Source: a bacterium
GTDB lineage: Bacteria; Elusimicrobiota; Elusimicrobia; UBA1565; UBA9628
Direction of reading: 5' to 3'
DNA: 64,000 nt
NCBI GenBank assembly: GCA_021846045.1
Contig: JAJZCM010000002.1
Location: 16,585 to 80,584 of the forward strand
The notes under the pieces were generated by a model. That model saw only the letters and a program-made list of their open reading frames with translations, searched no databases and was not told where the DNA came from. A program made the translations under genes and the position numbers. This document shows positions 12,832 through 57,712 of the stretch, one piece after another (the stretch's first letter is position 1; each line of letters opens with the position of its first letter).

Positions 12832-12846
12832 CGCTATACAAGAGCG

Positions 12847-13404: not shown

Positions 13405-13441
13405 AAGTTTTGCGTTGATTGCCGCCGCTCGTATGTCTGAG

Positions 13442-20233: not shown

Positions 20234-20365
20234 GTCACCCCGACGAAAGTCGGGGTCCAGGTTTCTAACTGGCCGTTTTCCTTCGGAATCTGGAAACGGC
20301 GCTTCCTCGCGTTATCGCTCGGTCGGATTCCGGCTTTCGCCGGAATTACGAACCTGAGCAGTTAC
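20234..20365 (+). repeat. REP-like two-hairpin repeat element, copy R1 (longest, with internal extra hairpin)
   Basis: GTCACCCCGACGAAAGTCGGGGTCCAG ... GATTCCGGCTTTCGCCGGAATTACGAACCTGAGCAGTTAC. Related copies at 43807-43888 and 54491-54556. Confidence 0.8.
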
Positions 20366-39459: not shown

Positions 39460-40233
39460 ATGAAACAATATGGATGGGGTTTGCCTTTAGCGGCATCTAG
39501 TTACGCGGGAAGTATTGACTTTGGAATCTACCTGATTCATGCCGTGATGATTTTAATTTTTATCATCTGGGGCATTTTCTTTGCGTATCTGCTCGTTAAA
39601 TATCGAAAGAAAGCGAATGTCCCTGCGCGCCGCGATCATTCCCACGGAGTTTTTAAAAGCCTGATTCCCGATCTAATCGTGATGGCCTTTGAAATTATTC
39701 TGATCGCTGTTTACGCGATTCCGGTTTGGAGCAAGATTAAAATCGACATTCCACCTTCTGGGAAAGCCAATAGGGTGGCCATCGAAGCTCAGCAATGGTC
39801 TTGGAATATCCATTATCCCGGCCCCGATGGTAAATTTGGAAAAACAGAGCCGAAATATGTTCATTTCTCCAACCCGATTGGTTTGGATTATAAGGACCCG
39901 GCGGCTAAAGACGATATCGTGCTCGCCAACGAGCTTCATTTGCCGGTCAATCAGCCTACGGTTATTGAATTGACATCGATGGATGTGATTCACAGTCTTT
40001 TCATTCCAGAATTCCGCCTTAAGCAGGACGCGGTGCCGGGGATGAAAATTCCCGTCTGGGTTAAACCGACCAAAATCGGGACTTTTGAAATTTCTTGCGC
40101 CCAGTTGTGCGGGATGGCGCACAGTTTCATGCGGGGCAAGGTCATAGTTCAAAGCCAGGCAGATTACGATGCGTGGCTCAAAAGCCGTGAACCCCAGGTT
40201 GCGCAGCCGGTTCCCGCAAGCGAGGCCTTCTAA
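39460..40233 (+). CDS. coxB: cytochrome c oxidase subunit II
   Basis: CuA motif H-x34-CAQLCGMAHSFM, two N-terminal TM helices. Confidence 0.9.
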   Translation: MKQYGWGLPLAASSYAGSIDFGIYLIHAVMILIFIIWGIFFAYLLVKYRKKANVPARRDHSHGVFKSLIPDLIVMAFEIILIAVYAIPVWSKIKIDIPPSGKANRVAIEAQQWSWNIHYPGPDGKFGKTEPKYVHFSNPIGLDYKDPAAKDDIVLANELHLPVNQPTVIELTSMDVIHSLFIPEFRLKQDAVPGMKIPVWVKPTKIGTFEISCAQLCGMAHSFMRGKVIVQSQADYDAWLKSREPQVAQPVPASEAF

Positions 40234-41957
40234 TGAATCACGATTCCCATTCATCGTCAAAACCTTTTTATCATTACTTTTTTTCCACCGATCATAAAGT
40301 GATCGGCCTTCTTTACACAATCACGGCTCTTGTCTTCTTATTGTGCGGTTTCATGTTGATGTTGGTGATGCGTTGGCAATTGGCTTTCCCGGGAAGCCCC
40401 ATTCCGCTGTTGGGCCGCATTCTTTCTCCAAGCTTGGCCCCCAACGGCGTTATGACTCCCAATTTTTATAACGCCTTGGGCGCGATGCATGGGACGATCA
40501 TGGTGTTTTTGGGGATCGTGCCTTTGGGCGTCGGCGGGTTCGGCAATTATGTCCTTCCCCTTCAAATCGGCGCGGAAGACATGGCTTTCCCGCGTCTTAA
40601 CTTGGCGAGCTATTGGTTTTTCTTGTCGGGCGGCCTTTTGATGCTCTCTTCTTTTATCTTACCCGGCGGCGCGGCGCAGTCCGGTTGGACTTCTTATCCA
40701 CCCTTGGCCATCATCAATCCCGGTCAGACTGTTTGGCTGTTTGCGATGGTGCTCTTAATCACTTCATCGCTTCTTGGGGCGATCAACTTCTTAGTCACTT
40801 CTCTTAATATGCGCGCAGCGGGAATGAAACTTTCTCGCCTTCCGATTTTCGTTTGGGCTCAAATTGTGACGGCTTTCCTCCTTTTGCTGGCCTTTCCGCC
40901 TCTTGAAGCGGCTTCGGTTCTTCAATTAATGGACCGTATCGCTCATACCAGCTTTTATCTTCCCCAAGGCCTTGTGATTTTGGGCATGCGGCATATCGCT
41001 TCCGGCGGTGGGCAGCCGCTTTTATGGCAGCATCTTTTCTGGTTCTTGGCCCATCCCGAGGTTTATGTCCTTTTGCTTCCGGCCATGGGAATCGTTTCTG
41101 AGATCATCGCCAATAATACGAGAAAGCCGATTCACGGCTATAACGTCATCGTAGGGTCGATGATTGCAATTGGGCTTCTGGCGTTTGTCGTCTGGGCCCA
41201 CCATATGTTCATCAGCGGAATGAGCGCGGTTTTAAGCGACTTTTTCCTTGTGACGACGATGATCATTTCGGTCCCCTCGGTTGCGATATTGACGAGTTTT
41301 GTCTTCAGCTTAAGAGGGGGGTCCATTCGCTTTACGACCCCGATGCTTTTTGCCTTGGCCTTTCTCCCGATGTTTGGGATTGGAGGGCTCACGGGGCTTC
41401 CCTTGGGCCTCACCGTCACCGATATCTATTTGCATGACACCTACTACATTATCGGCCACTTTCACTACATCGTAGTTCCCGGCTCGCTTCTTGCTTTAAT
41501 GGGGGGAGTTTATTATTGGTTTCCTAAATGGTTCGGACGGAAAATGAATGATACTTTGGGCCAATGGCATTTCTGGACATCTCTTATCTGCATGAATGGA
41601 GTTTTTTTTCCGATGTTTATTCAGGGCTTGGCCGGCCAAGACCGCCGCTATTACGACCCGATGGCGGCCTTGCACAGCGTGCCTACGCAACCTCTTCACG
41701 TTGTTAGTTCCGCTTTTGCGGGGCTTCTCTTTCTCTCGCAGATTCCTTTTATCTATAATTTCTTTCATAGCATATGGCATGGCGAGAAAACCGATGATAA
41801 CCCGTGGCAGGCGACAACCTTGGATTGGGCGTGTCCTTCTCCGCCCCCCCATGGCAATTTTACCAAGCCGATTCGCGTCTATCATGGACCGTATGAATAT
41901 TCGCCTGTTGGACACAAGACTGATTGGATTGCCCAAAATGAGGAGGTTTTAGCATGA
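40233..41957 (+). CDS. coxA: cytochrome c oxidase subunit I
   Basis: 574 aa, 12-TM haem-copper oxidase with conserved His ligands (WAHHMF, HDTYYIIGHFHY). Confidence 0.95.
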   Translation: MNHDSHSSSKPFYHYFFSTDHKVIGLLYTITALVFLLCGFMLMLVMRWQLAFPGSPIPLLGRILSPSLAPNGVMTPNFYNALGAMHGTIMVFLGIVPLGVGGFGNYVLPLQIGAEDMAFPRLNLASYWFFLSGGLLMLSSFILPGGAAQSGWTSYPPLAIINPGQTVWLFAMVLLITSSLLGAINFLVTSLNMRAAGMKLSRLPIFVWAQIVTAFLLLLAFPPLEAASVLQLMDRIAHTSFYLPQGLVILGMRHIASGGGQPLLWQHLFWFLAHPEVYVLLLPAMGIVSEIIANNTRKPIHGYNVIVGSMIAIGLLAFVVWAHHMFISGMSAVLSDFFLVTTMIISVPSVAILTSFVFSLRGGSIRFTTPMLFALAFLPMFGIGGLTGLPLGLTVTDIYLHDTYYIIGHFHYIVVPGSLLALMGGVYYWFPKWFGRKMNDTLGQWHFWTSLICMNGVFFPMFIQGLAGQDRRYYDPMAALHSVPTQPLHVVSSAFAGLLFLSQIPFIYNFFHSIWHGEKTDDNPWQATTLDWACPSPPPHGNFTKPIRVYHGPYEYSPVGHKTDWIAQNEEVLA

Positions 41958-42547
41958 GCGGGACGGCGGCAGTTTTAACTCACCAGCCTGGAGAATCAAC
42001 AGGAGTTACCAACGCCAAGTTGGGGATATGGCTTTTCTTGGCTTCCGAGATCATGCTGTTTTCAACTCTTTTTACGACCTATATCGTCTTAAGAATCGGC
42101 GCCGCCTCTTGGCCTCGGGGTTGGAACGTCTTGAACGTCCCACTGGGAATGATCAATACTTTTGTGTTGATTACCTCAAGCGTGACCATGGTCATGGCGT
42201 ACGCGAAAGCCCACGAGAGAGACTTAAAAGGTTTTCAGCGATATATTTCCTTGACGATTCTTCTCGCTTTTGCGTTTTTGGTGATCAAGGGCTTTGAGTG
42301 GGGCGCTCATTTTCGCCATAACGAGTTTCCGTCCACCTCTATTTTCCATGCCGTCTATTTTACGCTGACCGGGCTTCATGGGCTCCACGTCATTGGCGGC
42401 ATTATCGTCAACTCGACCTTGCTTTATCTCTCAAGGACGGATTTTGAACATCCCCTTTTCGTGGGCCGCGTTGAAGGCGCCGGACTTTATTGGCATTTCG
42501 TCGATATCGTTTGGATATTCTTGTTTCCGGCCCTATACCTGTTATAG
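41954..42547 (+). CDS. coxC: cytochrome c oxidase subunit III
   Basis: 197 aa, COX3 family (GLHGLHVIGG). Confidence 0.85.
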   Translation: MSGTAAVLTHQPGESTGVTNAKLGIWLFLASEIMLFSTLFTTYIVLRIGAASWPRGWNVLNVPLGMINTFVLITSSVTMVMAYAKAHERDLKGFQRYISLTILLAFAFLVIKGFEWGAHFRHNEFPSTSIFHAVYFTLTGLHGLHVIGGIIVNSTLLYLSRTDFEHPLFVGRVEGAGLYWHFVDIVWIFLFPALYLL

Positions 42548-42558
42548 TTGGAGGCAAT

Positions 42559-42912
42559 ATGAGCGCAAATGCAGTCGCGTCGACCGAGAATTCTTCCCAC
42601 GGGCCAAACGTGCGCGCCTATATGACGGTTTTCGGAATACTTCTTTTCTTAACGGTTCTCACGGTGCTGGTTTCTTATTGGCATCTGCCGATTAAGATGG
42701 CGGTGGCGGTCGCCTTAGCCATAGCCACTTTGAAATCAGCCTTGGTGGCCGCTGTTTTCATGCACCTCAAAGGCGAACGGATTATCATTTACGGGCTTTT
42801 GGGATTAACTGTATTTTTCGTTCTTTTTTTAATCGCCGGACCTTCTTTCGATGTGTTTGATGTCGGCGGACATTCCGTCCATGCTCCTGTCGCTATTCAG
42901 GCGGAGAAATAA
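42559..42912 (+). CDS. coxD: cytochrome c oxidase subunit IV (caa3-type CoxD)
   Basis: About 117 aa, three TM helices. Position and sequence type (MHLKGE) of bacterial subunit IV. Confidence 0.65.
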   Translation: MSANAVASTENSSHGPNVRAYMTVFGILLFLTVLTVLVSYWHLPIKMAVAVALAIATLKSALVAAVFMHLKGERIIIYGLLGLTVFFVLFLIAGPSFDVFDVGGHSVHAPVAIQAEK

Positions 42913-43109
42913 TGTCTCTGAAGAAATTTCATTTGTTCTTTATCATCGTCAGCCTGACCTTGATGGTTTTTGTCGGGGGTTGGGTGGCCTATCAGTTTCA
43001 CATGGGTATGGGAAAAGACTGGGTGAGCACTGGAATCATGGCCATTATCGGCTTTATCCTCGGACTTTTTTACGCGAACTGGTTTAGAGTCAAATATAGA
43101 AATTTATGA
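42912..43109 (+). CDS. small two-TM membrane protein in the oxidase operon
   Basis: 65 aa. Start overlaps the coxD stop. Two hydrophobic helices. Confidence 0.4.
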   Translation: MSLKKFHLFFIIVSLTLMVFVGGWVAYQFHMGMGKDWVSTGIMAIIGFILGLFYANWFRVKYRNL

Positions 43110-43318
43110 GATTTTTTGCTCTGTTGCTCAATCAAATTGCGCCTTCGTCTTTTGCTTGCGCGGTTTGTTTCGGCGCCAAAGGCTCTCCCGATCTCCTCCG
43201 AGGCCTCATTATCAGCGGAGTCATACTTTTAGCTTTTGTTTTCTCGATTTTAGGCGTTCTGATTAAGACGGTCTATGATATGGAAAACCGCAAAAATGCG
43301 GCCGATCGTCTGTCATGA
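43106..43318 (+). CDS. small CxxC-containing single-TM protein in the oxidase operon
   Basis: 70 aa. FACAVCFGAK followed by a TM helix. Translationally coupled to both neighbours. Confidence 0.4.
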   Translation: MRFFALLLNQIAPSSFACAVCFGAKGSPDLLRGLIISGVILLAFVFSILGVLIKTVYDMENRKNAADRLS

Positions 43319-44286
43319 GTGAAATTTCTTCCGCGTCGCTAACGCCTTCCCCAGTTTCGCCGTCTTTTCATCTTTTTGCCGTGCTGACCTCCGTTTGCGC
43401 TTTTATTTTAGTTTTTGTCGGCGCCCTGGTAACCTCAACGGGATCGGCTTTAGCGGTTCCAGATTGGCCGCTTTCTTTCGGAAAATTTTTCCCGCCGATG
43501 ACAGGCGGAGTTTTATTTGAGCACGGGCACCGGATGATTGCCGGTTCTGTCGCCTTGATGACCTGGGCCTTGGGCTTATGGGCTTATTTCTCGCGCTTAT
43601 CCAAGCCGGTCAGGCTTTTGAGCTATCTCATCGCTTCCGCGATCTTGCTTCAGGCCATTTTAGGAGGGCTCACGGTTCTTCTTCTTTTGCCGCCGTCTAT
43701 TGCGGTTTTTCACGCTCTACTGGGGCAAACGGTTTTTTGCCTTCTTCTGATTTTGGCGGACGTTTCTTCCCCATCCTCCAAATCTAAAATTGAGGTAACT
43801 ACTGGCGTCACCCCGGCGCAAGGCGGGGTCCAGAGCGGCAATTTTCTGGATTCCGGCTTTCGCCGGAATGACGAATCTGAGCAGTTACAAATTGAGTCTT
43901 CAAAACCCGGGCTTTGGAAATACGGCGCCGTTGCTGTGACGGCGCTTTATCTTCAGCTTCTTTTCGGCGCGATTTTAAGGCATTCCGGAAAATACGGGTT
44001 TCTTCACTACGCTTGGTCCATTGGGGCGTCGATTTCCCTGATTACCTTGTTTATCGCGGGGTTGAGAAGCAAGATTAAAAGTTTAAAGGGGCTTTCTATT
44101 TTCGCGGGCATTTTCGTCTTTTTTCAAGTTGCTTTGGGGCTTTTGGCTTATATGCGCCGGATTTCCCTTGATATGCAGCCGGGTTATAACCCAGGAGCCT
44201 TGTTGACCTCCATCCATGTGGCTTTGGGGGCTTTGCTTTTAGGCTCTTCGGTTTTATGGACTTTTCGCGCTTGGCAAGTTCGATGA
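43315..44286 (+). CDS. ctaA: haem A synthase (CtaA/COX15) carrying an in-frame REP-element insertion in its central loop
   Basis: Two four-helix halves with His ligands (FEHGHRMIAG; HYAWSIGAS). REP copy R2 at 43807-43888 is translated in-frame as ...GVTPAQGGVQSGNFLDSGFRRNDESEQLQ... Confidence 0.8.
   Translation: MSEISSASLTPSPVSPSFHLFAVLTSVCAFILVFVGALVTSTGSALAVPDWPLSFGKFFPPMTGGVLFEHGHRMIAGSVALMTWALGLWAYFSRLSKPVRLLSYLIASAILLQAILGGLTVLLLLPPSIAVFHALLGQTVFCLLLILADVSSPSSKSKIEVTTGVTPAQGGVQSGNFLDSGFRRNDESEQLQIESSKPGLWKYGAVAVTALYLQLLFGAILRHSGKYGFLHYAWSIGASISLITLFIAGLRSKIKSLKGLSIFAGIFVFFQVALGLLAYMRRISLDMQPGYNPGALLTSIHVALGALLLGSSVLWTFRAWQVR
43807..43888 (+). repeat. REP-like two-hairpin repeat element, copy R2 (inside ctaA)
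   Basis: GTCACCCCGGCGCAAGGCGGGGTCCAG...GATTCCGGCTTTCGCCGGAATGACGAATCTGAGCAGTTAC. Confidence 0.8.
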
Positions 44287-45122
44287 TTAAAGACTATTTG
44301 TCTCTCTGCAAACCGAGAATTTCTCTTTTAGTCGCGCTGACTGCGGCTTTGGGATATGCCTTGGCGCATGGAGTTTCCGGAGCGCATTTTTATTGGATGA
44401 TACTCGGCGTTACCTTAAGTTCGTCCGCGAGCGCGTGCTTGAATCAGTGGATGGAATTTAAACAAGACGCTCTCATGGAAAGAACGAAAAAGCGCCCGAT
44501 TCCTCAAGGGCGAATTACGCCGAAAGCGGCTTTTATTTTCGGAGTTTCCTTAGCCGTTGCCGGATTTTTGATTCTTTTCTTTAAGTCCAATTTTCTCGCC
44601 TTATTTTTGACCGAATTGACGGTGGCCGTCTACGTTTTGGTTTATACCCCGCTTAAGATGTCGACGCCGCAGACGACCTGGATTGGCGCGTTTGCCGGGG
44701 CGACGGCTCCTTTGATCGGTTGGGCCGCGGCGGCGGGTAGGCTTTCTCTGGAAGCGTGGATTTTGTTTGGAATTCAGTTCTTGTGGCAGATTCCGCATTT
44801 TTTGGCGTTATTTTGGATCTACCGCGACGATTATGCCCGCGCGGGGTTTAAGGTGATGCCGGTCCTTGATCCCGACGGAAAAATTACTTCCGCTCAGATT
44901 GCGCTTCATTCTTTTTCCGTTCTGCCCGTCGTTCTTTTGCCCGCCTTTTGCGGCATGGCGGGAACTGGTTATGAGGTGGGGGCGTTGTGCGTGGGAACCG
45001 CCTATATGAGCTTGGGCCTTAAGGCTAGTTGGGGATTAGAAAGAACCGATACGAAGCGGCTGTTTTTCGCGTCGCTTATTTACCTTCCCCTTATTTTCGG
45101 AATGCTTTGGATAGGAGCGTGA
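44256..45122 (+). CDS. ctaB: protohaem IX farnesyltransferase
   Basis: UbiA-family polytopic protein. Follows ctaA in the oxidase operon. Confidence 0.85.
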   Translation: MDFSRLASSMIKDYLSLCKPRISLLVALTAALGYALAHGVSGAHFYWMILGVTLSSSASACLNQWMEFKQDALMERTKKRPIPQGRITPKAAFIFGVSLAVAGFLILFFKSNFLALFLTELTVAVYVLVYTPLKMSTPQTTWIGAFAGATAPLIGWAAAAGRLSLEAWILFGIQFLWQIPHFLALFWIYRDDYARAGFKVMPVLDPDGKITSAQIALHSFSVLPVVLLPAFCGMAGTGYEVGALCVGTAYMSLGLKASWGLERTDTKRLFFASLIYLPLIFGMLWIGA

Positions 45123-45123
45123 A

Positions 45124-45819
45124 ATGGTGAAGAAAACTTTGATCGGCTTTGGACTCTTGATGGCGGTTTTGTCCGCCTGCCAGACGGTTTCTCAAGATCC
45201 GGTGGTCAGAGGAGACGCTTATTTCCACGCCTTGGGCTGCCTACAATGCCATCAAATTGGAAATGAGGGCGGAACTTGGGGGCCGAACTTGACTTTTATT
45301 GGGTTTAGAAAAAGCCCTCAGTGGCTGACCTTGTGGCTTAAGAGTCCGCACTCGTGGAATCAAAAAACCGTTATGCCTAATTTCCATTTGACCCAGGATG
45401 AATTAACGTCCTTGGTCGCTTATTTGTCCGCTCAAAAAGGGCAGGCTTGGACTGATGCCCAAAGGCCTTGGAATAAACCGGGACTTACCGAACTTGAGAG
45501 GGGTCATATTCTTTTTAACGAAGCAGGTTGCGTGGCTTGCCACGGGCAAGACGGCAGAGGCGGATATCCCAACAACAACGTCGTTGGCGGCCAGATTCCG
45601 GGACTCACGCAGGTTTCCTTGGGATACAGCCGGCATGAATTAATCGCTAAAATCACCAACGGCGTTCCGCAGTCGGCTCCGGCTGACCCGAATAAGCCGC
45701 TTCCCATGATCTTTATGCCGTCTTGGGGACGGGTCTTGTCGCAGTCTGAAATTTCCGACGTCGCGGATTATCTCTTGTCGTTAGGGCCCAAGCCTTCTTC
45801 TAGCGCGGATAGCTTTTAA
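45124..45819 (+). CDS. dihaem cytochrome c
   Basis: Signal peptide/lipobox-like N-terminus. Two CXXCH motifs (CLQCHQ, CVACHG). Confidence 0.8.
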   Translation: MVKKTLIGFGLLMAVLSACQTVSQDPVVRGDAYFHALGCLQCHQIGNEGGTWGPNLTFIGFRKSPQWLTLWLKSPHSWNQKTVMPNFHLTQDELTSLVAYLSAQKGQAWTDAQRPWNKPGLTELERGHILFNEAGCVACHGQDGRGGYPNNNVVGGQIPGLTQVSLGYSRHELIAKITNGVPQSAPADPNKPLPMIFMPSWGRVLSQSEISDVADYLLSLGPKPSSSADSF

Positions 45820-48297: not shown

Positions 48298-48370
48298 GAG
48301 CCCGTAGCTCAGGGGTAGAGCATTCGCCTTTTAAGCGAGGGGTCGTGGGTTCGAATCCCACCGGGCTCAC
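48298..48370 (+). tRNA. tRNA-Lys (anticodon TTT)
   Basis: GAGCCCG acceptor, anticodon loop CTTTTAA, T-arm GGTTCGAATCC. Confidence 0.85.
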
Positions 48371-48383
48371 AGCGATTTTTTAA

Positions 48384-48455
48384 GCCCCCGTCGTCTAACG
48401 GTTAGGACGCGGCCCTTTCAAGGCCGAAACACGAGTTCGATTCTCGTCGGGGGCA
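48384..48455 (+). tRNA. tRNA-Glu (anticodon TTC)
   Basis: GCCCCCG acceptor, anticodon stem CGGCC/GGCCG with loop CTTTCAA, T-arm AGTTCGATTCT. Confidence 0.85.
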
Positions 48456-48517
48456 TGAATCTCCTGCCAGGCTTTCCTCTATTGACAGTCCACCGCTTGT
48501 CCGTTACACTTTGATGT

Positions 48518-51187
48518 GTGCCGATGAGACAATCCCGGGGAATCTCGATTATTGAAGTAATGGTGACCGTCGCTTTAATCGCGGTCGGGGCCATGGCCTT
48601 TGTCAGCGCTTTTCGAGGCATTAACCGAGCCTTGCAATCGTCGCGGATGCGGACCATTGCGACCAATTTGGCGCAAGAGGAAGTGGAATATCTCAAGAAT
48701 TTTTCCTATTACAATCTCTTAGTTACGACCTCAACCTCCGTCAATAATAATTTTAGCCCCAACCTCAGCTACGATAATGCCTCCTACCCTCCCCAGGCCT
48801 TCGGTTATTGGGGGAATTCGCTAACAAGGGCGGTCTATATTCAGTATGCGGTTCCCGTGGGTGGGCAGATTCAGCCTTTACCTTGGTCAGCCAACGACCC
48901 CGGGCTTAAAATGATTACCGTTTATGTGTGGTGGAATGATGGAACGTCTTGGCGCGACGTTGAAATGCAAAATCTTTTAGAAAATCCAAATATCGCTACT
49001 CTCAATTCTCAAATCACGGGCTTTGTCTACGATGCTTCCGCCGGAAATGTTCCGTTATCCGGGGCTATTGTCAGCGTTTTAGGAAGCCCTCAGTGGAATA
49101 GCGAGTCAGGGTTCAACGGAAGTTTCAGTTTGAGCGTTGCGGCAGGGTCCTACACCGTGGTTGCCTCCTCCATCGGTTTTTTTTCCGAATCGTCTCCCTT
49201 GTTGTCCGCTCCTTCCGGCGGTTCCGTGAACCAGAGTTTCTATTTGACTCAAATGGCTTCCGGAACCGTTATTTCTAACAGCGTTTATTTTTCCAGTCAT
49301 GTCTTGGTTAGTCAAGTCGTTGCCGACACAAAAACGGTGGTTGGAGACGGCACCAGCCAGGATGTGCAATATGTCGAACTTTTTAATCCCACGACCGGAG
49401 TTGTTTCCGTCGCCAGTGACGTCTCGGGTCCCGGATGTTCAAATTCGGTGACCCCATTGGTTCAATTCAATTACTATTGTGGAAATGGCTTAAGCTGCAC
49501 ATCCAATGGTCAGACCTTAATTCCATTGTGTTATATCTCGTCTTCGGTCGTATCCGGCGGCTATTATCTTGTCGCCAATACGACCGAGAGTTTTTTTGTG
49601 GATGGGACGACGGTTTCTCCGGATGCGTACTTTAAAAATAATTATTATCCGGAATATAACTGGTCTAGTTCGCCCACGACAGAACTCATCCAGACTGGTC
49701 ACGCGGGGGCCGTTCAAATCCAAGGTTCTGGAACTTTAGGCAGCGGCGTAATTGATGAGGTCGGTTGGTCTAATACCGTCAATGGACACAACCCGCAGAT
49801 ATCTTGGGGAAACCCTATTCCCCAAAAAGGAGGCATTCAAAGCGGAGATCAAATCGTGAGGATGTCAAGCCCGTGCGCGGTCGTAGCCGGTCTTGGCCGG
49901 GCGTATGATACCCAGGACAACGCCGATAATTTTGGCTATGATACGACTGGAGTGGGAGGGAGTTATTTCATAAATCCCGCTTATGACAGCTTGTCTTCAA
50001 CCCAGTCTTTAATTGCCGGGGATCCCGCAATAGGAGGCTACGCCTCTTCTGATGACGGGCTTTCCGCCCCTGCCGTTATTGCGGAATCTCTTTTGCCCAA
50101 TCCCTTTGATTCAACGCCGCCCGCCGGGTATTGCCCTTACGCCGGTTTTAATTTGACCAATGTCGCGACTGGGACCTGGACGGTGATGGCGGCCAGCGGA
50201 ACTTACGAACAAACAATTTCAAGCGTAACGATTTCCGCGTCCGGTCAAACGATTGCGCTTCTTAACCCCTTTACTATTCCGGTTTCCTCTTTCGCGCCGG
50301 AAGGTTTTGTTCCCCTCTCTTCCTCCGCTGCCGGCGGATACATCGCGGGAACGGTGACGAGCGTTCAGGGAGTTCCTTTAGGGGGCATCACTATCTTGGG
50401 AGGAGCAGGAAGCGTCGTGACTAATTCCGCCGGCTTTTATTTCCTTTTTTCCTCCACGGGTTCGGCTTCTCTTGGGACGGCGATATCGGTAACGGCCAAT
50501 CCCAACCAGGAAGACCCCCTTTATGTGAGCGCCATGGCTTCGGTGGATGTTTATGCCGGGGAAGTGGCGGATCAGAATTTTGTCTTATCCCAGGGAGGAG
50601 AAGTGGTCGGATACGCGACCAGCGGGCTTGCGGCTTTGCCCGGCATTGTCTTTGTCGCTTCCAACACGGAAACCTCTCAAGCTGGGACCAGCGATGATAC
50701 CGGACATTTTTATATCGCCAATTTGACGACCGGTACCTATACGGTTACGCCCCAGCTTTCTACGGGACAAACGTCAAGCCCGCCGCAGGTTTCGGTCAAC
50801 ATAACGAACGGAAGTTTAGCGGTTTTTTCCGCGAGCTTTACCATCTCGGGAATCATGGGAAACTTTACGGGCACGGTCTCTGCCGGGGGGAGCCCGGTGA
50901 CGACGGGCGTCATCATCCTGGCTTCAACTGGAACTCTTTCTTATCCTCCGCCCAACGTTACGGGTTCAGGGGCCGGACAAATTTACTATGCGACGATGAG
51001 TCAACCGGACGGTTCTTACTCCTTGCCCGTGCGCGGCAGTAATTCTTCGACTTCATATACCTATAATTTGCTGGCGATTTATCCTTCGGTCAACGAGGGA
51101 AACGGCGCGGTTAGCGTTGTTTCTCAAACGCAAAGCGGCTCGGTCGACGCCGGCCAAAATCAGTCGGTTAATTTCTCGGGATTATGA
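48518..51187 (+). CDS. giant type IV pilin-like protein (prepilin N-terminus + about 850-aa Ig/CarboxypepD_reg-like repeat region), module 1
   Basis: Class III signal RG|ISIIEVMVTVALIAVGAMAF (Gly-1, Glu+5). Long Ser/Thr/Gly-rich beta-repeat body. Paralogue of 55079-57634. Confidence 0.75.
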   Translation: MPMRQSRGISIIEVMVTVALIAVGAMAFVSAFRGINRALQSSRMRTIATNLAQEEVEYLKNFSYYNLLVTTSTSVNNNFSPNLSYDNASYPPQAFGYWGNSLTRAVYIQYAVPVGGQIQPLPWSANDPGLKMITVYVWWNDGTSWRDVEMQNLLENPNIATLNSQITGFVYDASAGNVPLSGAIVSVLGSPQWNSESGFNGSFSLSVAAGSYTVVASSIGFFSESSPLLSAPSGGSVNQSFYLTQMASGTVISNSVYFSSHVLVSQVVADTKTVVGDGTSQDVQYVELFNPTTGVVSVASDVSGPGCSNSVTPLVQFNYYCGNGLSCTSNGQTLIPLCYISSSVVSGGYYLVANTTESFFVDGTTVSPDAYFKNNYYPEYNWSSSPTTELIQTGHAGAVQIQGSGTLGSGVIDEVGWSNTVNGHNPQISWGNPIPQKGGIQSGDQIVRMSSPCAVVAGLGRAYDTQDNADNFGYDTTGVGGSYFINPAYDSLSSTQSLIAGDPAIGGYASSDDGLSAPAVIAESLLPNPFDSTPPAGYCPYAGFNLTNVATGTWTVMAASGTYEQTISSVTISASGQTIALLNPFTIPVSSFAPEGFVPLSSSAAGGYIAGTVTSVQGVPLGGITILGGAGSVVTNSAGFYFLFSSTGSASLGTAISVTANPNQEDPLYVSAMASVDVYAGEVADQNFVLSQGGEVVGYATSGLAALPGIVFVASNTETSQAGTSDDTGHFYIANLTTGTYTVTPQLSTGQTSSPPQVSVNITNGSLAVFSASFTISGIMGNFTGTVSAGGSPVTTGVIILASTGTLSYPPPNVTGSGAGQIYYATMSQPDGSYSLPVRGSNSSTSYTYNLLAIYPSVNEGNGAVSVVSQTQSGSVDAGQNQSVNFSGL

Positions 51188-51690
51188 AAAAATCTGGCGA
51201 TAGACGGCTTCTTCAAGGCTATACCCTCGTTGAAGTCATGATTACGGTCGCGATTATGTCGGTGGTGGCCGCTCTTATTTCTCCATTGCTGACGAATATG
51301 ACCAGTTTCTGGCGCTTGACCCAGGCCCGAACCGTTATTGAGAGAGACGCCCGTGTTTCCATGGATTTGATGAATCGGGCCATTCGCCAGGCGCAGAGCT
51401 CGACGATTATTCTTTCTAGTTATCCGAATGAGCCCCCCTATTCGGAAATTAGTTTTACCGATATAAAGGGTAATTTAGTTTCTTTTTATCAACAGGGAAA
51501 TTATCTCTATGAAAAATTCAATACCACGGTTTCCATGTTGACCAAGAATCTGGAATTTGTATCGTTTACTTTTCCGGATAGTTCCCAGACCGGTATATTG
51601 TCGGTGGCGATGACGACTCAGAAAAGCACTTATTTAGGCCGCAGCAAGGCCTTGGAGCTTTCCATTGAAGAAGTCCGGATTATGAATTGA
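51184..51690 (+). CDS. minor pilin/pseudopilin, module 1
   Basis: G|YTLVEVMITVAIMSVVAAL prepilin motif. 168 aa. Translationally coupled. Confidence 0.75.
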   Translation: MKKSGDRRLLQGYTLVEVMITVAIMSVVAALISPLLTNMTSFWRLTQARTVIERDARVSMDLMNRAIRQAQSSTIILSSYPNEPPYSEISFTDIKGNLVSFYQQGNYLYEKFNTTVSMLTKNLEFVSFTFPDSSQTGILSVAMTTQKSTYLGRSKALELSIEEVRIMN

Positions 51691-52952
51691 TGAAAATCCT
51701 CCAAAACAAGTCTCGCGGTCAAGTCTCGATGGGGGCGATGGCGCTTTTAATTGGACTCATGATCCTCGGATCCGCGATGGTTTCCTATATTTTTTATGAA
51801 TCGAAATGGACGGTCAAAGAGCAAAAGACGACGGTGGCTTTTCAATTGGCCGAAGCGGCGACCGAGCGCGGTTATTGGGAAATCAGCCAGCTGAGTTCTC
51901 CAACGGCCAATATTCCGATCTCCGGATACAACTTTGATCAGGAATACAGCGACTTATCTGGGGGGAGCTACGCGATAGAGATTTCCAGCGATTCTGCGAG
52001 CGATATCATCATTACCGGAATTGGGCGGGATAATTTAAAAAAAGAGACGCGCGAGATAGAGTCTCTCTACGAAAATGGAAGCGGAGGAAAAAACGCGATT
52101 GTCGGGGGAGGCGGCGTAGACGCGAGCGGGACCAATATGCATGTGGAATGGGGAGCGATTATCAGCCAGAGTTCGATGACGGCCAATTCCTCGCGACTTC
52201 ACCCGTCTTTGTGGAGCAGCGGCGAGATATCTCCCTTTGACACTGCGAATACTCCGTCTAACTGCGATTCTCCCAACTGTTGGTGGTGGCATGCCTATGA
52301 TCCCAACCTGCCGCCGATGCCTTCGCTCAATTTTACCTACTATGAGAATTTAGCCCAATCCGAGGGCGCAAGCCCCTGCGGCGGCAGCTACTATACCAAT
52401 GGGAGCCGTTCCGGAAGCTGCAGCGATTTAAGCGGAAATACTTACTACGTCACCGGAAATTGGACTTCCTTTGACGGTCCGATTTTTGGAAATGTCATCG
52501 TGCTGGGCGATATGACGACTCCCAACGGCGTTTTGAGCGGTGAGGCGATTTCCGCCGCCATGCCTCAAAACGCTTGGGCGCAATATTGCAATGATTGGAA
52601 TTTTTATTTAACTACCTATAACGACACATACGCGCAATCCCACTATCCCAGCGCTTGTCCGGGTCTCAGCAGCAGTTACTTGTCGTCTCCCGCCATTACT
52701 TATCCCATCAGCCCGGCTGTTCAGGGACTTCTCTATGTGGGCGGGGATTTTACCGGTCCCAATGGAGGCGGAAACAGCGTGTTGACTTACGGAGTCCTGA
52801 TGGTTTCCGGCAATGTTCACCTCAATTCCAATTCCCATGTCGCGGTTTATTATGATGCCAATGTTGGGGACAATCTCCATGTGACTAAGACCAGCTACTC
52901 CCGCGTCGAATGGCAAGAAATTCAGCCCATTTGGCCGAGTGGACTTCCGTGA
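51687..52952 (+). CDS. PilX-like minor pilin/tip-associated protein, module 1
   Basis: N-terminal hydrophobic pilin-like helix (G|QVSMGAMALLIGLMILG) and a KEQKTTVAFQLAEAATERGYWE PilX_N-like block. Paralogue of 52960-54474. Confidence 0.6.
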   Translation: MMKILQNKSRGQVSMGAMALLIGLMILGSAMVSYIFYESKWTVKEQKTTVAFQLAEAATERGYWEISQLSSPTANIPISGYNFDQEYSDLSGGSYAIEISSDSASDIIITGIGRDNLKKETREIESLYENGSGGKNAIVGGGGVDASGTNMHVEWGAIISQSSMTANSSRLHPSLWSSGEISPFDTANTPSNCDSPNCWWWHAYDPNLPPMPSLNFTYYENLAQSEGASPCGGSYYTNGSRSGSCSDLSGNTYYVTGNWTSFDGPIFGNVIVLGDMTTPNGVLSGEAISAAMPQNAWAQYCNDWNFYLTTYNDTYAQSHYPSACPGLSSSYLSSPAITYPISPAVQGLLYVGGDFTGPNGGGNSVLTYGVLMVSGNVHLNSNSHVAVYYDANVGDNLHVTKTSYSRVEWQEIQPIWPSGLP

Positions 52953-52959
52953 AGCGCGT

Positions 52960-54474
52960 TTAAGGCCAGGATTGAGGCTTAGTGTCCTGCCAATCCGTTT
53001 GGACCAAGACGACGTTTAAAGTCGGAACCTGGAGTTGGTCATTGTAGAATATTCCGCAGAAACTGCTCAGACAATTGGGGTCTCCCGAAGGACAACTGGC
53101 CGCGACCGAACCATTGACCCAGACGGCGCCGTTAAAATCCATGAAATTTTTGATGATCAAATTCCCGCCAACATAGGTAAATCCCCGCACTCCGACGGTA
53201 TTGACCCATCCGCAGGTCATCGTGTTAGGGGGCTTGCTTGGGAAGCAAAATGAATTAGTTCCGAAAGCCCAGGTGGCCGCGCTTTGGTGGTAGCCAATGT
53301 CTGCGGGATATTCGCCGCTGGCAGGCGTGTCATAGCGGGTTTCCGTGAATTTCTGATGCTGCCGCCAGGCATTAGCTGGGACGTGCCCGGTATAATCATA
53401 ATCGCCGCCGCTGTCGATGGTCAGTTTTCCGCGAACGATGATGGTGCCTTGTAGCCCGGAATCGAGTCCGGCCGAGGGCGCCGCGCCTTGTCCGGTGAAG
53501 GTCACGTCCCCATCCCAATACCAGACGTAATTGGTATTGGGATGATATTGCGGGGAAAAAGGGTGATTCCAATTGTTTCCAAAATGGCAATAGGGTCCGT
53601 AACAAGCTCCTCCCGTTGGGCTGGAATAATGCGGAGAGCCTGTCGGGCAAGTTCCTTTATTGGCCCAGGGAGCGCGTCCTGTCATGTTGGCCCCGGTCGT
53701 CGGATCGGTGTAGTTGGAGCTTTTTCTGCAGCCGTAAACATTGAGGGTATGGGTGGCGGCGGCCGAGGAGCGAAGAGCGGCGAAATCGAGAATCGGGAGT
53801 TCCGGAACCTTGGGGTAATTGGCCCACCATTCGATGCCGTCGGTGTTGGGCGGCAAGGGCCAGCTGGTGTCCCGCGGGTTTGCGGCGGTTCCAATGACGT
53901 CAGCCCGCGCGTATTTTTGTGGGAAATACCATTGAGCGGTGGTGTTATCGAGGGTGATATTACCTTGAGAGATAATGGGGCCCCAAAAGATGCTGACCCC
54001 TTTGGAATAGCTGACGTTCCCCTGCGTCAGAAGCGGGCTATAAACCGTCTCATTTTGAAAAATGGCCTCAATTTCCCTGAGTTCATGCGTGGAATTGTCC
54101 CGCCCTTCGCCGTAAATCGTAATTCCGCCATTCGCGGCGGAAGTGATGAGAATGCGATATTCTCCGCCTGGGATATCGCCGTAATTTTTATCGAATTGAT
54201 ATCCGGGAAACGGGGTTCCCGCCGACATCTCCGCGAAAGTTCCCGTTGAGCTTTTGGCTTTCCAATAGCCGCGGTTGACCGCCGCTTCGGCGAGGTTCAG
54301 AGCAGCGGTTGATTTTTGGTTTTTGACCGAGGTTCTTGCCTCCGATTGGACCCATTGAACGACCGCCGGAACGATGGCCAGAAGAAGAAGCATCAAAAGC
54401 AAGGTTCCGACCAATATCTGCCCGAAGTCTTTTCTAAACAAAATATTTTTCTTCATATTAGTGTAGTGATTCAT
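52960..54474 (-). CDS. PilX-like minor pilin/tip-associated protein, module 2
   Basis: FGQILVGTLLLMLLLLAIV helix and a KNQKSTAALNLAEAAVNRGYWK block. Start taken at an internal Met so that REP copy R3 is intergenic. Confidence 0.6.
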   Translation of the reverse strand: MNHYTNMKKNILFRKDFGQILVGTLLLMLLLLAIVPAVVQWVQSEARTSVKNQKSTAALNLAEAAVNRGYWKAKSSTGTFAEMSAGTPFPGYQFDKNYGDIPGGEYRILITSAANGGITIYGEGRDNSTHELREIEAIFQNETVYSPLLTQGNVSYSKGVSIFWGPIISQGNITLDNTTAQWYFPQKYARADVIGTAANPRDTSWPLPPNTDGIEWWANYPKVPELPILDFAALRSSAAATHTLNVYGCRKSSNYTDPTTGANMTGRAPWANKGTCPTGSPHYSSPTGGACYGPYCHFGNNWNHPFSPQYHPNTNYVWYWDGDVTFTGQGAAPSAGLDSGLQGTIIVRGKLTIDSGGDYDYTGHVPANAWRQHQKFTETRYDTPASGEYPADIGYHQSAATWAFGTNSFCFPSKPPNTMTCGWVNTVGVRGFTYVGGNLIIKNFMDFNGAVWVNGSVAASCPSGDPNCLSSFCGIFYNDQLQVPTLNVVLVQTDWQDTKPQSWP

Positions 54475-54490
54475 AAATTCCTTCACATTC

Positions 54491-54556
54491 GTCACCCCGA
54501 CGAAAGTCGGGGTCCAGAGCATCGATCTTCTAGATTCCGGCTTTCGCCGGAATGAC
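54491..54556 (+). repeat. REP-like two-hairpin repeat element, copy R3 (truncated, intergenic)
   Basis: GTCACCCCGACGAAAGTCGGGGTCCAGAGC...GATTCCGGCTTTCGCCGGAATGAC. Confidence 0.8.
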
Positions 54557-54593
54557 GGCCTTTCCAATGTAAAGAAGTGTTGGAATCACTATA

Positions 54594-55085
54594 TCAGTTC
54601 ATGACCTCGACTTCTTCAGAGGCCATGTGAAGCGCCTTGGAGCCTCCTTGATAAATTCCGGTTTGAAACGTGATGGAGACGGAAATAATGTTCATGTCAT
54701 CGGAGCGCGGAAAAGTAAACGCAAGATAGATTATATCTTGAGATAAGATTTTGGTCATATTCCCCACTTGCATTTCAAGAAGATTCCCATTTTGGAAAAA
54801 ACTCATCGTCGCTCCTTGCGAGGTTGTGAAGGTAATTTGGGAATAGTAGGGCTCACTCGTAGAATAGCGGCTGAGCGTGATCGTTGAGCTTTGAGCTTGC
54901 CTGAGATTGCGGGTAATTACGTAGAGAATGCTGCGCCCCTCCTCTTGAAGCTGAACCTTGGAATTGGAAAGCATGAAGTATCGGTTGGCTTGCACGGTGA
55001 GGCCAGCGCCGACGGATATGAGAATTCCGGTGATGGCGACGACCATCATCATTTCAAGCAGGGTATACCCGTTTTTTTTCACCAT
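54594..55085 (-). CDS. minor pilin/pseudopilin, module 2
   Basis: G|YTLLEMMMVVAITGILIS prepilin motif. 163 aa. Confidence 0.75.
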   Translation of the reverse strand: MVKKNGYTLLEMMMVVAITGILISVGAGLTVQANRYFMLSNSKVQLQEEGRSILYVITRNLRQAQSSTITLSRYSTSEPYYSQITFTTSQGATMSFFQNGNLLEMQVGNMTKILSQDIIYLAFTFPRSDDMNIISVSITFQTGIYQGGSKALHMASEEVEVMN

Positions 55086-57634
55086 GATAGATTCTGGCCG
55101 GATACGGTTTGCCCTTCAAGAATCGGGACATTTGACAGCGATTTCTGGACGATGTTGATTCCTCCTGTGGGCGATATTTCCGGATAATATCCATAAATGT
55201 TATAGGCCGGATACGTGCTTTGCCGGACTTGGACGCTGAAAGTTCCGTTCTCATTGCTGGAAGCCGAATAATACGAAATTCCCGTGAGTGACGCCGAACT
55301 AATAACGGGCGGACCTCCGGGCAAGGTGTCGGTCGTGACCACGATAAGAACGCCGGTTGAAATGGGATTTCCGGACAACGTGACGTTTCCTGATAGCGTT
55401 CCCATCGCTCCAGTAATCGTGAATGTGCCTACAAAAATGGTTTGGCCTGACAAGACGCTTGCGGAGACGACGTTGGGATTGGAAACTTCGGTTGAGTCCA
55501 AAGGAATGCGGACGGTGTAGGCGCCCGTGGCGAGGTTGATAGTTTGAAAATGCCCGGTCGCATCGGTGACTTCTTGATCTTGGGTGTTTCCATTGGAATC
55601 AATAGCGCTCATTGATATCCCTTCTAATCCATTAATTCCGTCGCGGGTTACCCATCCGCTGAGCCGTCCGCCTTGGGTCAGCGTGAAATTAATTCCGCTT
55701 TCGATTTGGCCCGGATAGACGGTGATGGCGTTTGAGGACATAGAAACGTAGTTGGAATTAAGAGATGCAGGGTTGGCCGTCACATCAGTGATTCCGCTGG
55801 ATACCCGCAATAGATAGCGCCCGGTTGCGGTATTGGCTGTTGCGTTGGAGCCTCCGGCGGAAACTTCAATTGCGGTGGGAACGGAAATGGGGTTACCATT
55901 GGCGTCGGTGACGAGTCCCGCGATAAAGCCGGAGTTGGTCGTTTGGTTGAGAATGCTCGCCGTGCTTGGAAAAACGTAGATGGAATTGGAAGCGGCGACG
56001 GTGACGGTGTCATTTTCCGTTTCGTAGGAGGCGCTGGTCATAACCACGCTCCAGGTTCCCGTTGCGACATTGAGGAGACTAAAGGCGGCGACGGGAGGGC
56101 TTCCGCTGAGCACGGCTTCGGTTGAGGAAGAAAGTCCGTCATTGGAGGTGATGACCGCCCCGGCGGCGGGAACGCCGGAAATAACGAGGGCGGGTGGAAA
56201 TTGAGAGTTCTCCGGGGAAACGGGAATGCCGGAAATGGATAAAGGAGGATTGGTACTACCCGGATAGGCAAAATCGATGCTGTTGTTTTCGGAATTATAG
56301 GCAGGGCCAAAGAAGGTATTGACAAAAGAAGGACTGGAGGCGCGCACGATTTCTTGTCCGGCAGGGAGCCCTCCGCTTTGGGGGATGCAGGTTCCATTAC
56401 AATAACTGGGATTGGGGGTTGATCCACCGTTGGTCCAGCCGACGGCGTCGATCAGGCTGCCGGGGCCGTCTGTCAAATAGATTGTGCCGCTATTGCCGGG
56501 GGCCATGATGTTCATTGCCGAGGGCGTCCAGTCGTAAGCGGAGGGGGTGCAGGGATCGGCGGCTGGATAGGTGTAATAGGCGTCGGCGGAAATCGAGCTT
56601 CCGTTGACCGTAAAAGTCGTGGTGTTGGCGATAAGATAATATTGTCCGGGGGGGACATCGCCTACGACGTAAGTGAGGAGGACATTGGCGCATTGAGTAT
56701 TAGTGTTGTAACCGGACACAAAATTGAGATTTACATTGCCGCTAATAACGATAGTGTTGGTCGTGGGATTAAATAATTCGACATACTCTACGTTGTAGCC
56801 GTTGGCTTGGGGCGTGGAAACGACCACCTGGCTGATTAAAAGATTGGGTTCAATCCAGGCTTCTCCCGTAACCGTTCCGGAACTCATCGGCGTTAATGAA
56901 AAATTGACTGTGACGGTGTTGTCGGCGGGGGCGGATTGAAAGGCATAGCCGGTAAAGTATCCCGGAGCGGAAGCGACTAGGTTGAAGCTTCCCGGTGAGA
57001 GTGAAATGGCGTAAAGGCCGGAGGCATTGGTGACGCCGCTCCAGCCCAAGTTTTCCGCGACAGCGACATTGCTTCCCTGAATGGGGTTGCCGGTTGTCGC
57101 ATCGCTGACGGTTCCCATGAAACTTGAATTGGCTTCGACGGTGTCGGGGTTAGACATGACATTGGTGAGAGGAAGATATTGCGTTTGCCCATCTTGAGTC
57201 CAGGCGATGGTGACGGTGATTTGCCGCATTCCCGTGTCCGGAGTCGTTGGAGGAAGAGGCGTCAGAGTTCCGTTTTTATCCGAGATCACTTGAATATAGG
57301 TATAGCGCTCAAAATTAACCCCGCCTTCAAGAACATTCTCCGGAGGGAAATTAACCGTGTCATAGGGCGTTCCGTTGGATAAAAAAGAAGGGTTTTGCGT
57401 GGGAATGACATTCGGATAAGACTCCTCTTCGATAATTTGTATCTGTTCTTGAGCAAGGTTGGTGGCGAGGGTTTTGTCCCGGGACATTTGGATGGAGCGT
57501 TGAACGCCTCGAAAAGATGCGACCAACCCCAGGGTCGCGATTGAAAGGATGCCGAGGGCGATCATCATCTCGACTAAACTCGCCCCCATCTGACTTGAAG
57601 GGAGACTGATTTTTAGAGGCCCCATCCTGCCCAT
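55079..57634 (-). CDS. giant type IV pilin-like protein, module 2
   Basis: MG|ASLVEMMIALGILSIATLGLVASF prepilin motif. 851 aa. Clear homology to 48518-51187 in the first ~230 aa. Confidence 0.75.
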   Translation of the reverse strand: MGRMGPLKISLPSSQMGASLVEMMIALGILSIATLGLVASFRGVQRSIQMSRDKTLATNLAQEQIQIIEEESYPNVIPTQNPSFLSNGTPYDTVNFPPENVLEGGVNFERYTYIQVISDKNGTLTPLPPTTPDTGMRQITVTIAWTQDGQTQYLPLTNVMSNPDTVEANSSFMGTVSDATTGNPIQGSNVAVAENLGWSGVTNASGLYAISLSPGSFNLVASAPGYFTGYAFQSAPADNTVTVNFSLTPMSSGTVTGEAWIEPNLLISQVVVSTPQANGYNVEYVELFNPTTNTIVISGNVNLNFVSGYNTNTQCANVLLTYVVGDVPPGQYYLIANTTTFTVNGSSISADAYYTYPAADPCTPSAYDWTPSAMNIMAPGNSGTIYLTDGPGSLIDAVGWTNGGSTPNPSYCNGTCIPQSGGLPAGQEIVRASSPSFVNTFFGPAYNSENNSIDFAYPGSTNPPLSISGIPVSPENSQFPPALVISGVPAAGAVITSNDGLSSSTEAVLSGSPPVAAFSLLNVATGTWSVVMTSASYETENDTVTVAASNSIYVFPSTASILNQTTNSGFIAGLVTDANGNPISVPTAIEVSAGGSNATANTATGRYLLRVSSGITDVTANPASLNSNYVSMSSNAITVYPGQIESGINFTLTQGGRLSGWVTRDGINGLEGISMSAIDSNGNTQDQEVTDATGHFQTINLATGAYTVRIPLDSTEVSNPNVVSASVLSGQTIFVGTFTITGAMGTLSGNVTLSGNPISTGVLIVVTTDTLPGGPPVISSASLTGISYYSASSNENGTFSVQVRQSTYPAYNIYGYYPEISPTGGINIVQKSLSNVPILEGQTVSGQNLSW

Positions 57635-57712
57635 CTCAGAAGTATAACAGGGAAAAATACAAAGTCAATGGGGTGGAGAAAGGCGCGGAACTGGTAAAAT
57701 ATGGGAGTATCC

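Follow-up and report, generated by a model that had tools for sequence, protein, structure and literature searches.

What do two three-gene modules build when they face each other across a few nucleotides and each begins with the gene for a prepilin-like protein of 850–890 residues? The modules, designated A (plus strand, encoding the giant protein A1, the small protein A2, and the third protein A3) and B (minus strand, encoding B1, B2, and B3), lie in a stretch of 64,000 nucleotides (hereafter, the window) of the Elusimicrobiota assembly GCA_021846045.1 (contig JAJZCM010000002.1, positions 16,585–80,584). From the gene models, prepilin signals and their conservation, predicted folds, synteny, and paralogy reported below, we infer that each module is probably a self-contained operon for the heterotrimeric tip (priming) complex of a type IV filament; the complex itself, its location at the tip, its ligand, and the machine that both modules would share are conclusions drawn from those observations. 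By analogy, the counterparts of the trio would be GspI-GspJ-GspK in type II secretion and PilV-PilW-PilX(ComZ) in type IV pili. A tip or priming complex is the most economical reading of the gene order (I/V-like, small, K/X-like) taken together with the conserved G-1 and E+5 residues and the tight coupling of the genes. An original prediction, made from the sequence alone, had proposed a type IV filament with an adhesin or tip-fibre-like extension, which fits the signals, the AlphaFold2 folds, and the Foldseek matches to adhesin stalks.

Signals, folds, and gene models of the six proteins

Class III (prepilin peptidase) signals of the form G/xxxxE, the slash marking the cleavage site, are carried by A1, A2, B1, and B2 (Table 1), which are the sole class III open reading frames (ORFs) found in a six-frame motif scan of the window. 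A3 (RG/QVSMG) and B3 (FG/QILVG) have a hydrophobic N-terminal helix from which E+5 is absent (family consensus, GQxLxGV), and all six proteins thus begin with one of the two elements that the original prediction had ascribed to them. A2 and B2 scored above the cut-offs of PF07963 and TIGR02532, and A1 and B1 scored just under the N_methyl cut-off (20.4 and 16.0 vs 21.2). The signal is conserved among homologues, where its loss had been named as a sign of a different membrane anchor: every giant protein aligned without gaps (62/62 and 67/67) has G-1 and E+5, as do, across loci (designated by L numbers), 65 of 68 giant and 68 of 70 small ORFs. The true exceptions, L027 and L028, have Ala at -1, and the giant ORF of L026 is an over-extended ORF start.

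The giant proteins A1 and B1 are collinear from end to end (33% identity; E 2e-114, BLASTP), with an identity of 29–42% in each of 11 segments (29% in the pilin head and 34–39% in the C-terminal domains). The earlier statement that they are alignable only over about 230 N-terminal residues and have diverged in their bodies was wrong, the bodies being as conserved as the N-termini. Pfam matches comprise N_methyl and two CarboxypepD_reg domains in A1, and three CarboxypepD_reg domains, an LTD domain (33.2 bits vs a cut-off of 34.3), and weak SdrD_B/SpaA-like domains in B1; the CarboxypepD_reg domains of the giants scored 57–69 bits against a cut-off of 32.3. The AlphaFold2 model of B1, calculated from a 71-sequence alignment (predicted local distance difference test score, pLDDT, 86.7), consists of an alpha1 helix (residues 20–70) and a sheet (99–161), followed by about six beta-sandwich domains, and Foldseek matched B1 with adhesin and pilin stalks (B. 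anthracis TIE, SdrD, PitA, BcpA, GBS52, and UafA) and with carboxypeptidase D domain II. The best-scoring classes for the giant N-termini, though under the curated cut-offs, are PilV and GspI: the best NCBIfam match of A1 is PilV (TIGR02523; 26.8 bits vs 52.2), and those of B1 are ComGE, GspI (TIGR01707; 25.1 bits vs 44.35), and PilV, all below their cut-offs. When the N-terminal family alignment was compared with E. coli pseudopilins by hhalign, GspI was matched at 95.9% over 55 alpha1 columns, against 14–36 columns for the other classes. Searches of the PDB, by sequence and by profile, with the N-terminal 167 residues gave no meaningful match. The reading that suits the giants best is that of minor (tip) pilins of the GspI/PilV class, which is narrower than the general label of pilin.

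In the terms of PMC8179133, the giants are modular pilins, that is, proteins joining an N-terminal pilin module of the IPR012902 type to domains not specific to type IV pilus biology. Their description as unusual pilins holds only with qualification, since N_methyl + PF13620 is a common architecture and the family is ubiquitous in Elusimicrobiota. The role of major pilin was considered for the giant and rejected, because it shares an operon with a K-like cap, is too bulky, and has an alpha1 of the I class. None of the six proteins has a Pfam-A match (E ≤ 0.1) to the PilC/PilY1 beta-propeller, the C-terminal hallmark (IPR008707) of that non-pilin adhesin, and the giants are not PilY1 members; equipped with its own class III signal, a giant may work like PilY1 as a bulky tip adhesin.

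The small proteins A2 and B2 (38% identical) are bona fide prepilins, G-1 and E+5 being invariant in the A2 homologues. Their NCBIfam matches to GspJ (E 0.006) and PpdB (E 3e-4 to 0.0095) are all far under the cut-offs, the longest alpha1 alignments are with the J class (PpdB, 63 columns; GspJ, 36 columns), and the matches of the family in a PDB profile search are confined to the alpha1N segment shared by various pilins. The small protein is placed at the GspJ/PilW position mainly by the position of its gene, its class being ambiguous by hhalign.

The third proteins A3 and B3 are 34% identical over the N-terminal 220 residues, with a weaker C-terminal match. B3 has a weak match to PilX_N (PF14341; 15.1 bits vs 25.5), and A3 matches neither PilX_N nor any other Pfam or NCBIfam family; PDB sequence and profile searches with the third-protein family gave no meaningful match. 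The AlphaFold2 model of A3 (pLDDT 87.4) shows a helix (10–67), a four-stranded sheet (82–130), a stretch of about 260 residues rich in beta structure, and a strand at the end (404–412), from which an insertion topology can be read by the order of secondary structures rather than by three-dimensional contacts. In a Foldseek search of the PDB, the sole significant match of A3 was ComZ (6qvi; E 5.7e-6, probability 1.0). On these models, the third protein would be of the GspK/PilX/ComZ class, with a pilin-like helix lacking E+5 and a pilin fold bearing a large extra domain; in that class, the addition is an alpha-domain in GspK and a beta-solenoid in ComZ and in cyanobacterial PilX. The previous label "PilX-like" is sharpened by the Foldseek match to ComZ-like, with a large beta-rich domain on the pilin fold.

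All six genes were found in the predicted order as a mirrored pair of three-gene modules (Table 1). The A1 ORF is open from GTG 48518 (889 residues), but the start is most likely ATG 48524 (887 residues), which is conserved among relatives and agrees with the 887-residue database gene call. Likewise, A3 is open from TTG 51687 (421 residues) and probably starts at ATG 51690, as in the database gene call. Judging from orthologues of 496–497 residues and from its own sequence, B3 most likely starts at ATG 54456 or 54474 (about 498–504 residues), not at TTG 54567; for B1, the database start at 57625 gives 848 residues. The suspicion that the gene models are merged by a frameshift is excluded by a profile search in which more than 130 representatives (clustered at 50% identity) among the top 150 matches each gave a single full-length match of 800–1017 residues; this family count is a lower bound, the E value being still 1e-170 at rank 150. 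A2 overlaps A1 by 4 nt and B2 overlaps B1 by 7 nt, the overlaps within the modules being 1–7 nt with the exception of a 140-nt B2–B3 spacer, and these overlapping start and stop codons suggest translational coupling within the modules.

Table 1 Coordinates of the two modules and associated features in the window
Feature	Coordinates	Strand	Basis and details
Promoter-like site of module A	48482–48510	+	sigma-70-like consensus match (TTGACA, 17 nt, TACACT)
A1, giant GspI/PilV-like modular minor pilin	48524–51187	+	ORF; leader MRQSRG/ISIIE; 887 aa
A2, small prepilin at GspJ/PilW position	51184–51690	+	168 aa; signal G/YTLVE
A3, ComZ/GspK/PilX-like pilin without E+5 (predicted)	51690–52952	+	420 aa from ATG 51690
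Gap between convergent stop codons	52953–52959		7 nt; read directly from sequence
B3, ComZ/GspK/PilX-like pilin without E+5 (predicted)	52960–54456	-	about 498 aa; ORF open to TTG 54567
Two-hairpin REP/MITE-like repeat in B2–B3 spacer	54491–54554	-	repeat comparison within the window
B2, small prepilin at GspJ/PilW position	54594–55085	-	163 aa; signal G/YTLLE
B1, giant GspI/PilV-like modular minor pilin	55079–57634	-	851 aa; signal G/ASLVE
Promoter-like site of module B	57641–57668	-	consensus match (TTGACT, 16 nt, TATACT, TG extension)

The proposed tip complex and its rivals

In the proposed complex, the third protein, with its ComZ-like beta-rich domain on a pilin fold lacking E+5, would cap the filament, a cap with which the giant, by its pilin module, and the small prepilin would bundle through their alpha1 helices in the inner membrane. 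Prepilin peptidase would cut after the conserved Gly, and the major pilin would polymerise below the complex, driven by a motor and platform encoded, like the major pilin, elsewhere in the genome, so that the complex would end at the distal tip. The extension of about 680 residues in the giant, predicted to be a tandem row of about six beta-sandwich domains, among them three to four CarboxypepD_reg domains of the transthyretin-like kind and a single lamin-tail Ig domain, would project from the tip as a ligand-binding stalk of about 20 nm, as estimated from the typical size of Ig domains. The most likely ligand would be a carbohydrate or a surface, and DNA is possible. The presence of two paralogous sets would offer the cell a choice of two tips, and one machine would probably make two functionally different filaments.

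Several results weigh against this model. Every class-specific profile match is below its curated cut-off, and hhalign leaves no class signal for any of the three proteins once alpha1N is trimmed. With alpha1N included, the small family matches GspG (95.8%), GspH (93.4%), GspJ (88.7%), and PpdB (81%), which makes its class ambiguous. The superposition of A3 and ComZ has a TM-score of only 0.24, and the relative orientation of the domains differs. The module contains no fourth minor pilin like GspH/FimU, and neither the window nor the 10 kb around each of about 70 modules contains PilB, PilC, PilD, PilQ, PilM-O, or a major pilin. The original prediction had already noted the lack of pilB, pilC, pilM-Q, and prepilin peptidase genes in the window, and this was borne out by Pfam scans (ORFs of at least 150 residues in the first 44 kb and several downstream ORFs) and, for the rest, by the database gene table. 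Similarly, a regular-expression search of the flanks of 88 loci gave no match to the Walker-A motif of GspE/PilB/PilT.

Modules that always stand alone could be explained by an envelope complex independent of any filament, in which the class III signal serves only for anchoring and sorting and the stalk is displayed on a stub or on a mini-filament of minor pilins, with no major pilin. Endomicrobium genomes reportedly keep pilD and pilins, without a complete DNA-uptake system of the type IV pilus kind in any of them (PMC8809381); members of the present family occur in Endomicrobia metagenome-assembled genomes (MAGs; L029 and P0071). However, minor-pilin operons of type IVa pili are commonly unlinked from the machinery (PMC6668835), and both the conserved E+5 and the 50-residue alpha1 are features selected for filament packing; we regard a filament-independent complex as unlikely. 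A bolder version, to which we assign a slightly smaller chance, is that the trio constitutes an autonomous organelle specific to Elusimicrobiota, namely, a prepilin-peptidase-dependent mini-filament or tip fibre of three minor-pilin-like proteins. If so, the part of adhesin, played elsewhere by PilY1, would have passed to the I-class subunit through its stalk of about 20 nm, the trio would have been kept in reduced lineages that lack a complete pilus machine, it could serve attachment between cells or to hosts or the capture of DNA, and the paralogues would represent two distinct surface organelles rather than two tips of one pilus type.

The resemblance of the giant N-terminus to GspI, which is as strong as that to PilV, also brings up type II secretion systems (T2SS), where the trio would be the tip of a periplasmic pseudopilus (GspI-J-K) pushing substrates through a secretin. 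An I-J-K set without H is the minimal tip trimer of the T2SS, and ComZ is structurally closest to GspK (PMC6561018). Nevertheless, what an adhesin-like stalk of about 680 residues would do on a short piston in the periplasm is not obvious, none of the loci is adjoined by gspC, D, E, F, L, or M, although T2SS genes usually form one operon (as in E. coli), and two paralogous sets per genome are better explained by alternative pilus tips. A secretion pseudopilus is, accordingly, a doubtful explanation.

An equally small probability is given to the idea that at least one module forms the tip of a competence (DNA-uptake) pilus, in which DNA would be received by the ComZ-like protein and possibly also by the lamin-tail domain; such a pilus is a special case of the tip-complex model and does not exclude it. 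Besides being the sole structural match of the third protein, ComZ of Thermus thermophilus is a GspK-like tip pilin with an inserted beta-solenoid that binds DNA together with the GspI-like PilA2 (PMC6561018). In cyanobacteria, however, beta-solenoid PilX proteins occur in both the competence and the motility/adhesion sets, so that the fold is not specific for DNA binding, and neither comEA nor comEC is nearby. Finally, in spite of the mirror-image gene order with stop codons 7 nt apart, a recent inverted duplication, an assembly artefact, or frameshift-merged models can practically be dismissed, being refuted by the identity of only 33–38% between the copies, by the convergent pairs in the independently assembled L004/L041 and, with a spacer, in L010, by the separate orthologues of each copy, and by the more than 130 clusters of full-length homologues of the same size.

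Distribution, paralogy, and surroundings of the modules

The family occurs across Elusimicrobiota. B1 is identical to a protein on DAHZIA010000007.1 of the Elusimicrobiota MAG GCA_027401875.1, all homologues with a named source are labelled Elusimicrobia, Elusimicrobiota, or Endomicrobiia, and the 47 A3 homologues are, wherever named, from Elusimicrobia. A scan of GTDB species genomes found about 57 full-length loci in Elusimicrobiota or unclassified MAGs, with one exception on a 6.5-kb contig binned as Chloroflexi, and only lamin-tail domain matches beyond Elusimicrobiota. The order giant, small, third is kept in about 55 further Elusimicrobiota species genomes, and hidden Markov models (HMMs) of the three families located 71 modules with the three genes on one strand and in that order wherever the contig was complete. 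The only rearranged form seen is in L055 (8580–17529), where two consecutive modules each have the ComZ-like gene inverted and divergently upstream of the giant gene. In one MAG (L049), the giant gene lies in two pieces about 1.2 kb apart (7768–8721 and 9962–11779), which could represent an insertion or a pseudogene.

Apart from the trio, these loci share no conserved unit. All-against-all clustering of flanking ORFs revealed no family in more than 13 of 62 loci, and this includes any additional conserved neighbour, for instance a fourth pilin or glycosyltransferase. Some B-type modules stand beside polytopic membrane proteins of 450–590 residues (PMT_2, DUF2079, or no family) and glycosyltransferases of families GT2 and GT9 (L002, 6895–9920 and 14373–19094; L003, 6908–9968 and 16000–18953; L008, 14782–18092). 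These neighbours may be envelope or pilin glycosylation genes, and the association is not general.

HMM scores separate the A type from the B type, and giants of one type go with third proteins of the same type, A with A and B with B. The nearest relatives of A3 are of the A type (88–32% identity) and those of B3 of the B type (90–38%), compared with 29% between A3 and B3, and each of the 69 giant homologues retrieved with B1 resembles B1 more than A1. The third protein is about 420 residues long in the A type and 430–590 in the B type. This division is based on nearest-neighbour lists and HMM scores; a tree of the third proteins by the unweighted pair group method with arithmetic mean gave no clean split into two clusters, and the pattern-limited genome scan makes the co-occurrence of both types a lower bound. 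Because each type is closest to the same type in other species, the A/B duplication is older than much of the diversification of the phylum. The original prediction of old paralogues rather than a recent inversion thus stands, given protein identities of 33%, 38%, and 34% and the separate orthologues of each module, and the matter of whether one or both modules are conserved is answered by orthologues of both types in other species.

The junction of the two modules is less regular than the modules themselves. In the window, the stop codons were read at 52950–52952 and 52960–52962, as predicted, and no terminator hairpin lies between them, no significant structure being detected (z -1.6 and -0.8); one weak terminator-like site on the minus strand (52938–52922) is no better than shuffled sequence. 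Convergent A/B pairs with 3–7 nt between them occur in the window and in L004/L041, whereas in L010 the convergent modules are separated by 5 kb with six other genes, L018 (A then B) and L037 (B then A) have them in tandem, one MAG carries the types on separate contigs (L025 and L051), and L039, with an A3 of 88% identity, lacks any B module over a distance of 8 kb. The expected transcriptional collision is not borne out as a built-in property, since relatives have the spacer or tandem modules, and the 7-nt junction is, by these arrangements, a local, lineage-specific accident rather than a design feature.

The two best sigma-70-like matches of the region lie directly upstream of A1 and B1, the site of module A being the top-scoring one. 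The hexamers of the putative module A promoter are invariant in L004 and L039 with variable flanks, and those of module B are conserved in the close relatives L004 and L010 with variation in neighbouring bases. The putative module A promoter is directly 3' of tRNA-Glu (48384–48455), which forms with tRNA-Lys a pair, tRNA-Lys(UUU) and tRNA-Glu(UUC), immediately upstream of the module (48298–48455). This tRNA-Glu/promoter/A1 junction is kept in L004 and in L039, the latter without an adjoining B module. A genomic island inserted at the tRNA genes was considered and rejected, as the GC content is like that of the surroundings and the tRNA-Glu/module A junction occurs also in relatives.

The B2–B3 gap measures only 1–7 nt in relatives and is filled here by an element resembling repetitive extragenic palindromes (REP) or miniature inverted-repeat transposable elements (MITE). 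The element, of about 110 nt, has three copies in the window (20234–20347, 43807–43870, and 54491–54554), all in minus-strand orientation, and contains two GC hairpins, CATTCCGGC-GAAA-GCCGGAATC and GACCCCGAC-TTTC-GTCGGGGTGAC. The repeat halves match exactly at 54491–54554, and those of the other copies match exactly or with at most 3 mismatches, where none is expected by chance. One copy is inside a CtaA-like ORF, where it encodes "SGFRRNDES".

Elsewhere in the window, a stretch of low GC content (8000–13600; 43–47% vs about 51%) holds an FtsK/SpoIIIE-family ATPase (8547–10007) and many short ORFs without family matches, including one (12847–13404) that may be PIN-like by its sequence, with no Pfam match; the stretch may be an integrated mobile element. 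A protein of 471 residues (5861–7276, minus strand) is built from ankyrin repeats over nearly its full length (12 Ank matches, E 1e-93), and ankyrin-repeat proteins of such kind are uncommon in free-living bacteria. A complete aa3-type cytochrome oxidase cluster (39460–45819; COX2, COX1, COX3, CtaA, CtaB, and cytochrome c) indicates that this lineage of Elusimicrobiota respires aerobically. Among the genes shown by the Pfam scans and the database gene table are housekeeping genes (aconitase, suf, cox/cta, nadA, dapB, panB, and others).

Meaning of the trio and comparison with known systems

Flagella are absent from Elusimicrobiota, and for Endomicrobiaceae no encoded cell appendages other than pilins are reported (PMC11257099). 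The trio, present in essentially every sampled lineage, is thus a strong candidate for attachment to surfaces, hosts, or DNA in a phylum whose members are in many cases uncultured, very small, or symbiotic. At present, databases annotate its proteins as "carboxypeptidase regulatory-like domain-containing protein" or "hypothetical protein", which the present assignment would correct. For the field of type IV filaments, the model would mean that the smallest tip subunit (GspI/PilV) can carry a large multi-domain adhesin and that an I-J-K-like trio capped by a ComZ-like protein can make a tip without PilY1. Nor would the retention of ancient tip sets in two paralogous versions be restricted to cyanobacteria and myxobacteria.

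The closest parallels are GspI-J-K and PilV-W-X, which share with the Elusimicrobiota module three adjacent, overlapping genes in the same order (as in the E. coli gsp operon), a first protein with a GspI/PilV-like alpha1, class III signals in the first two proteins, and a last protein that lacks E+5 and bears a large domain. Unlike them, the module has no GspH/FimU partner, adjacent machinery, or PilY1, and the I/V-class subunit, normally the smallest (125 residues in E. coli GspI), is here the largest, with 850–890 residues. With ComZ-PilA2 of Thermus (6QVI/6QVF), the likeness lies in the fold of the third protein and in the adjacency of comZ and pilA2, whereas the sequence identity is about 9–10% and the structural agreement has the low TM-score given above; furthermore, bulk is found only on ComZ in Thermus, whereas here the I-like partner has a far larger extension.

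In cyanobacteria, Com-type and EPS-type core minor-pilin sets have been shown experimentally to prime two distinct pili (bioRxiv 10.64898/2026.02.12.705559). These PilX-PilV-PilW-FimT sets resemble the modules in being two deeply diverged paralogous sets per genome with co-segregating PilX and PilV subfamilies, in having a bulky beta-rich (beta-solenoid) PilX, and in the lack of PilY1 (bioRxiv 10.64898/2026.02.12.705559). They differ in including FimT and in being expanded in PilX (HpsA-like) rather than PilV, and they belong to another phylum. The small proteins have their best NCBIfam match, through alpha1, in protein C of the Verru_Chthon cassette, which is an uncharacterised multi-gene cassette of prepilin-like proteins from a non-model phylum according to its TIGRFAMs description. 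The scores (TIGR02599, 31.1 bits vs 256.5; TIGR02596, 17.4 vs 70) show that they are not members of it.

Modular pilins themselves are nothing new and occur widely. N_methyl + PF13620 ranks in the top 15 of their architectures by frequency, a location at the tip has been proposed for them owing to their bulk, most are bimodular, and the largest cited has 860 residues (PMC8179133). Compared with those surveyed, such as S. sanguinis PilB (vWA) and PilC (lectin) and CofB/TcpB (PMC8179133), the present family, with 800–1017 residues and about six extra domains, is fixed in an I-J-K-like trio throughout a phylum. A search of the Elusimicrobia literature returned nothing on this trio family. What is new is a large multi-domain extension on the I/V-class subunit, the fixed place of that subunit in a three-gene operon that is I-J-K-like and has a ComZ-like cap, and the phylum-wide maintenance of this operon as two ancient paralogues. 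Collectively, the modules represent a known design in a variant that has gone unstudied, rather than a system of a new kind.

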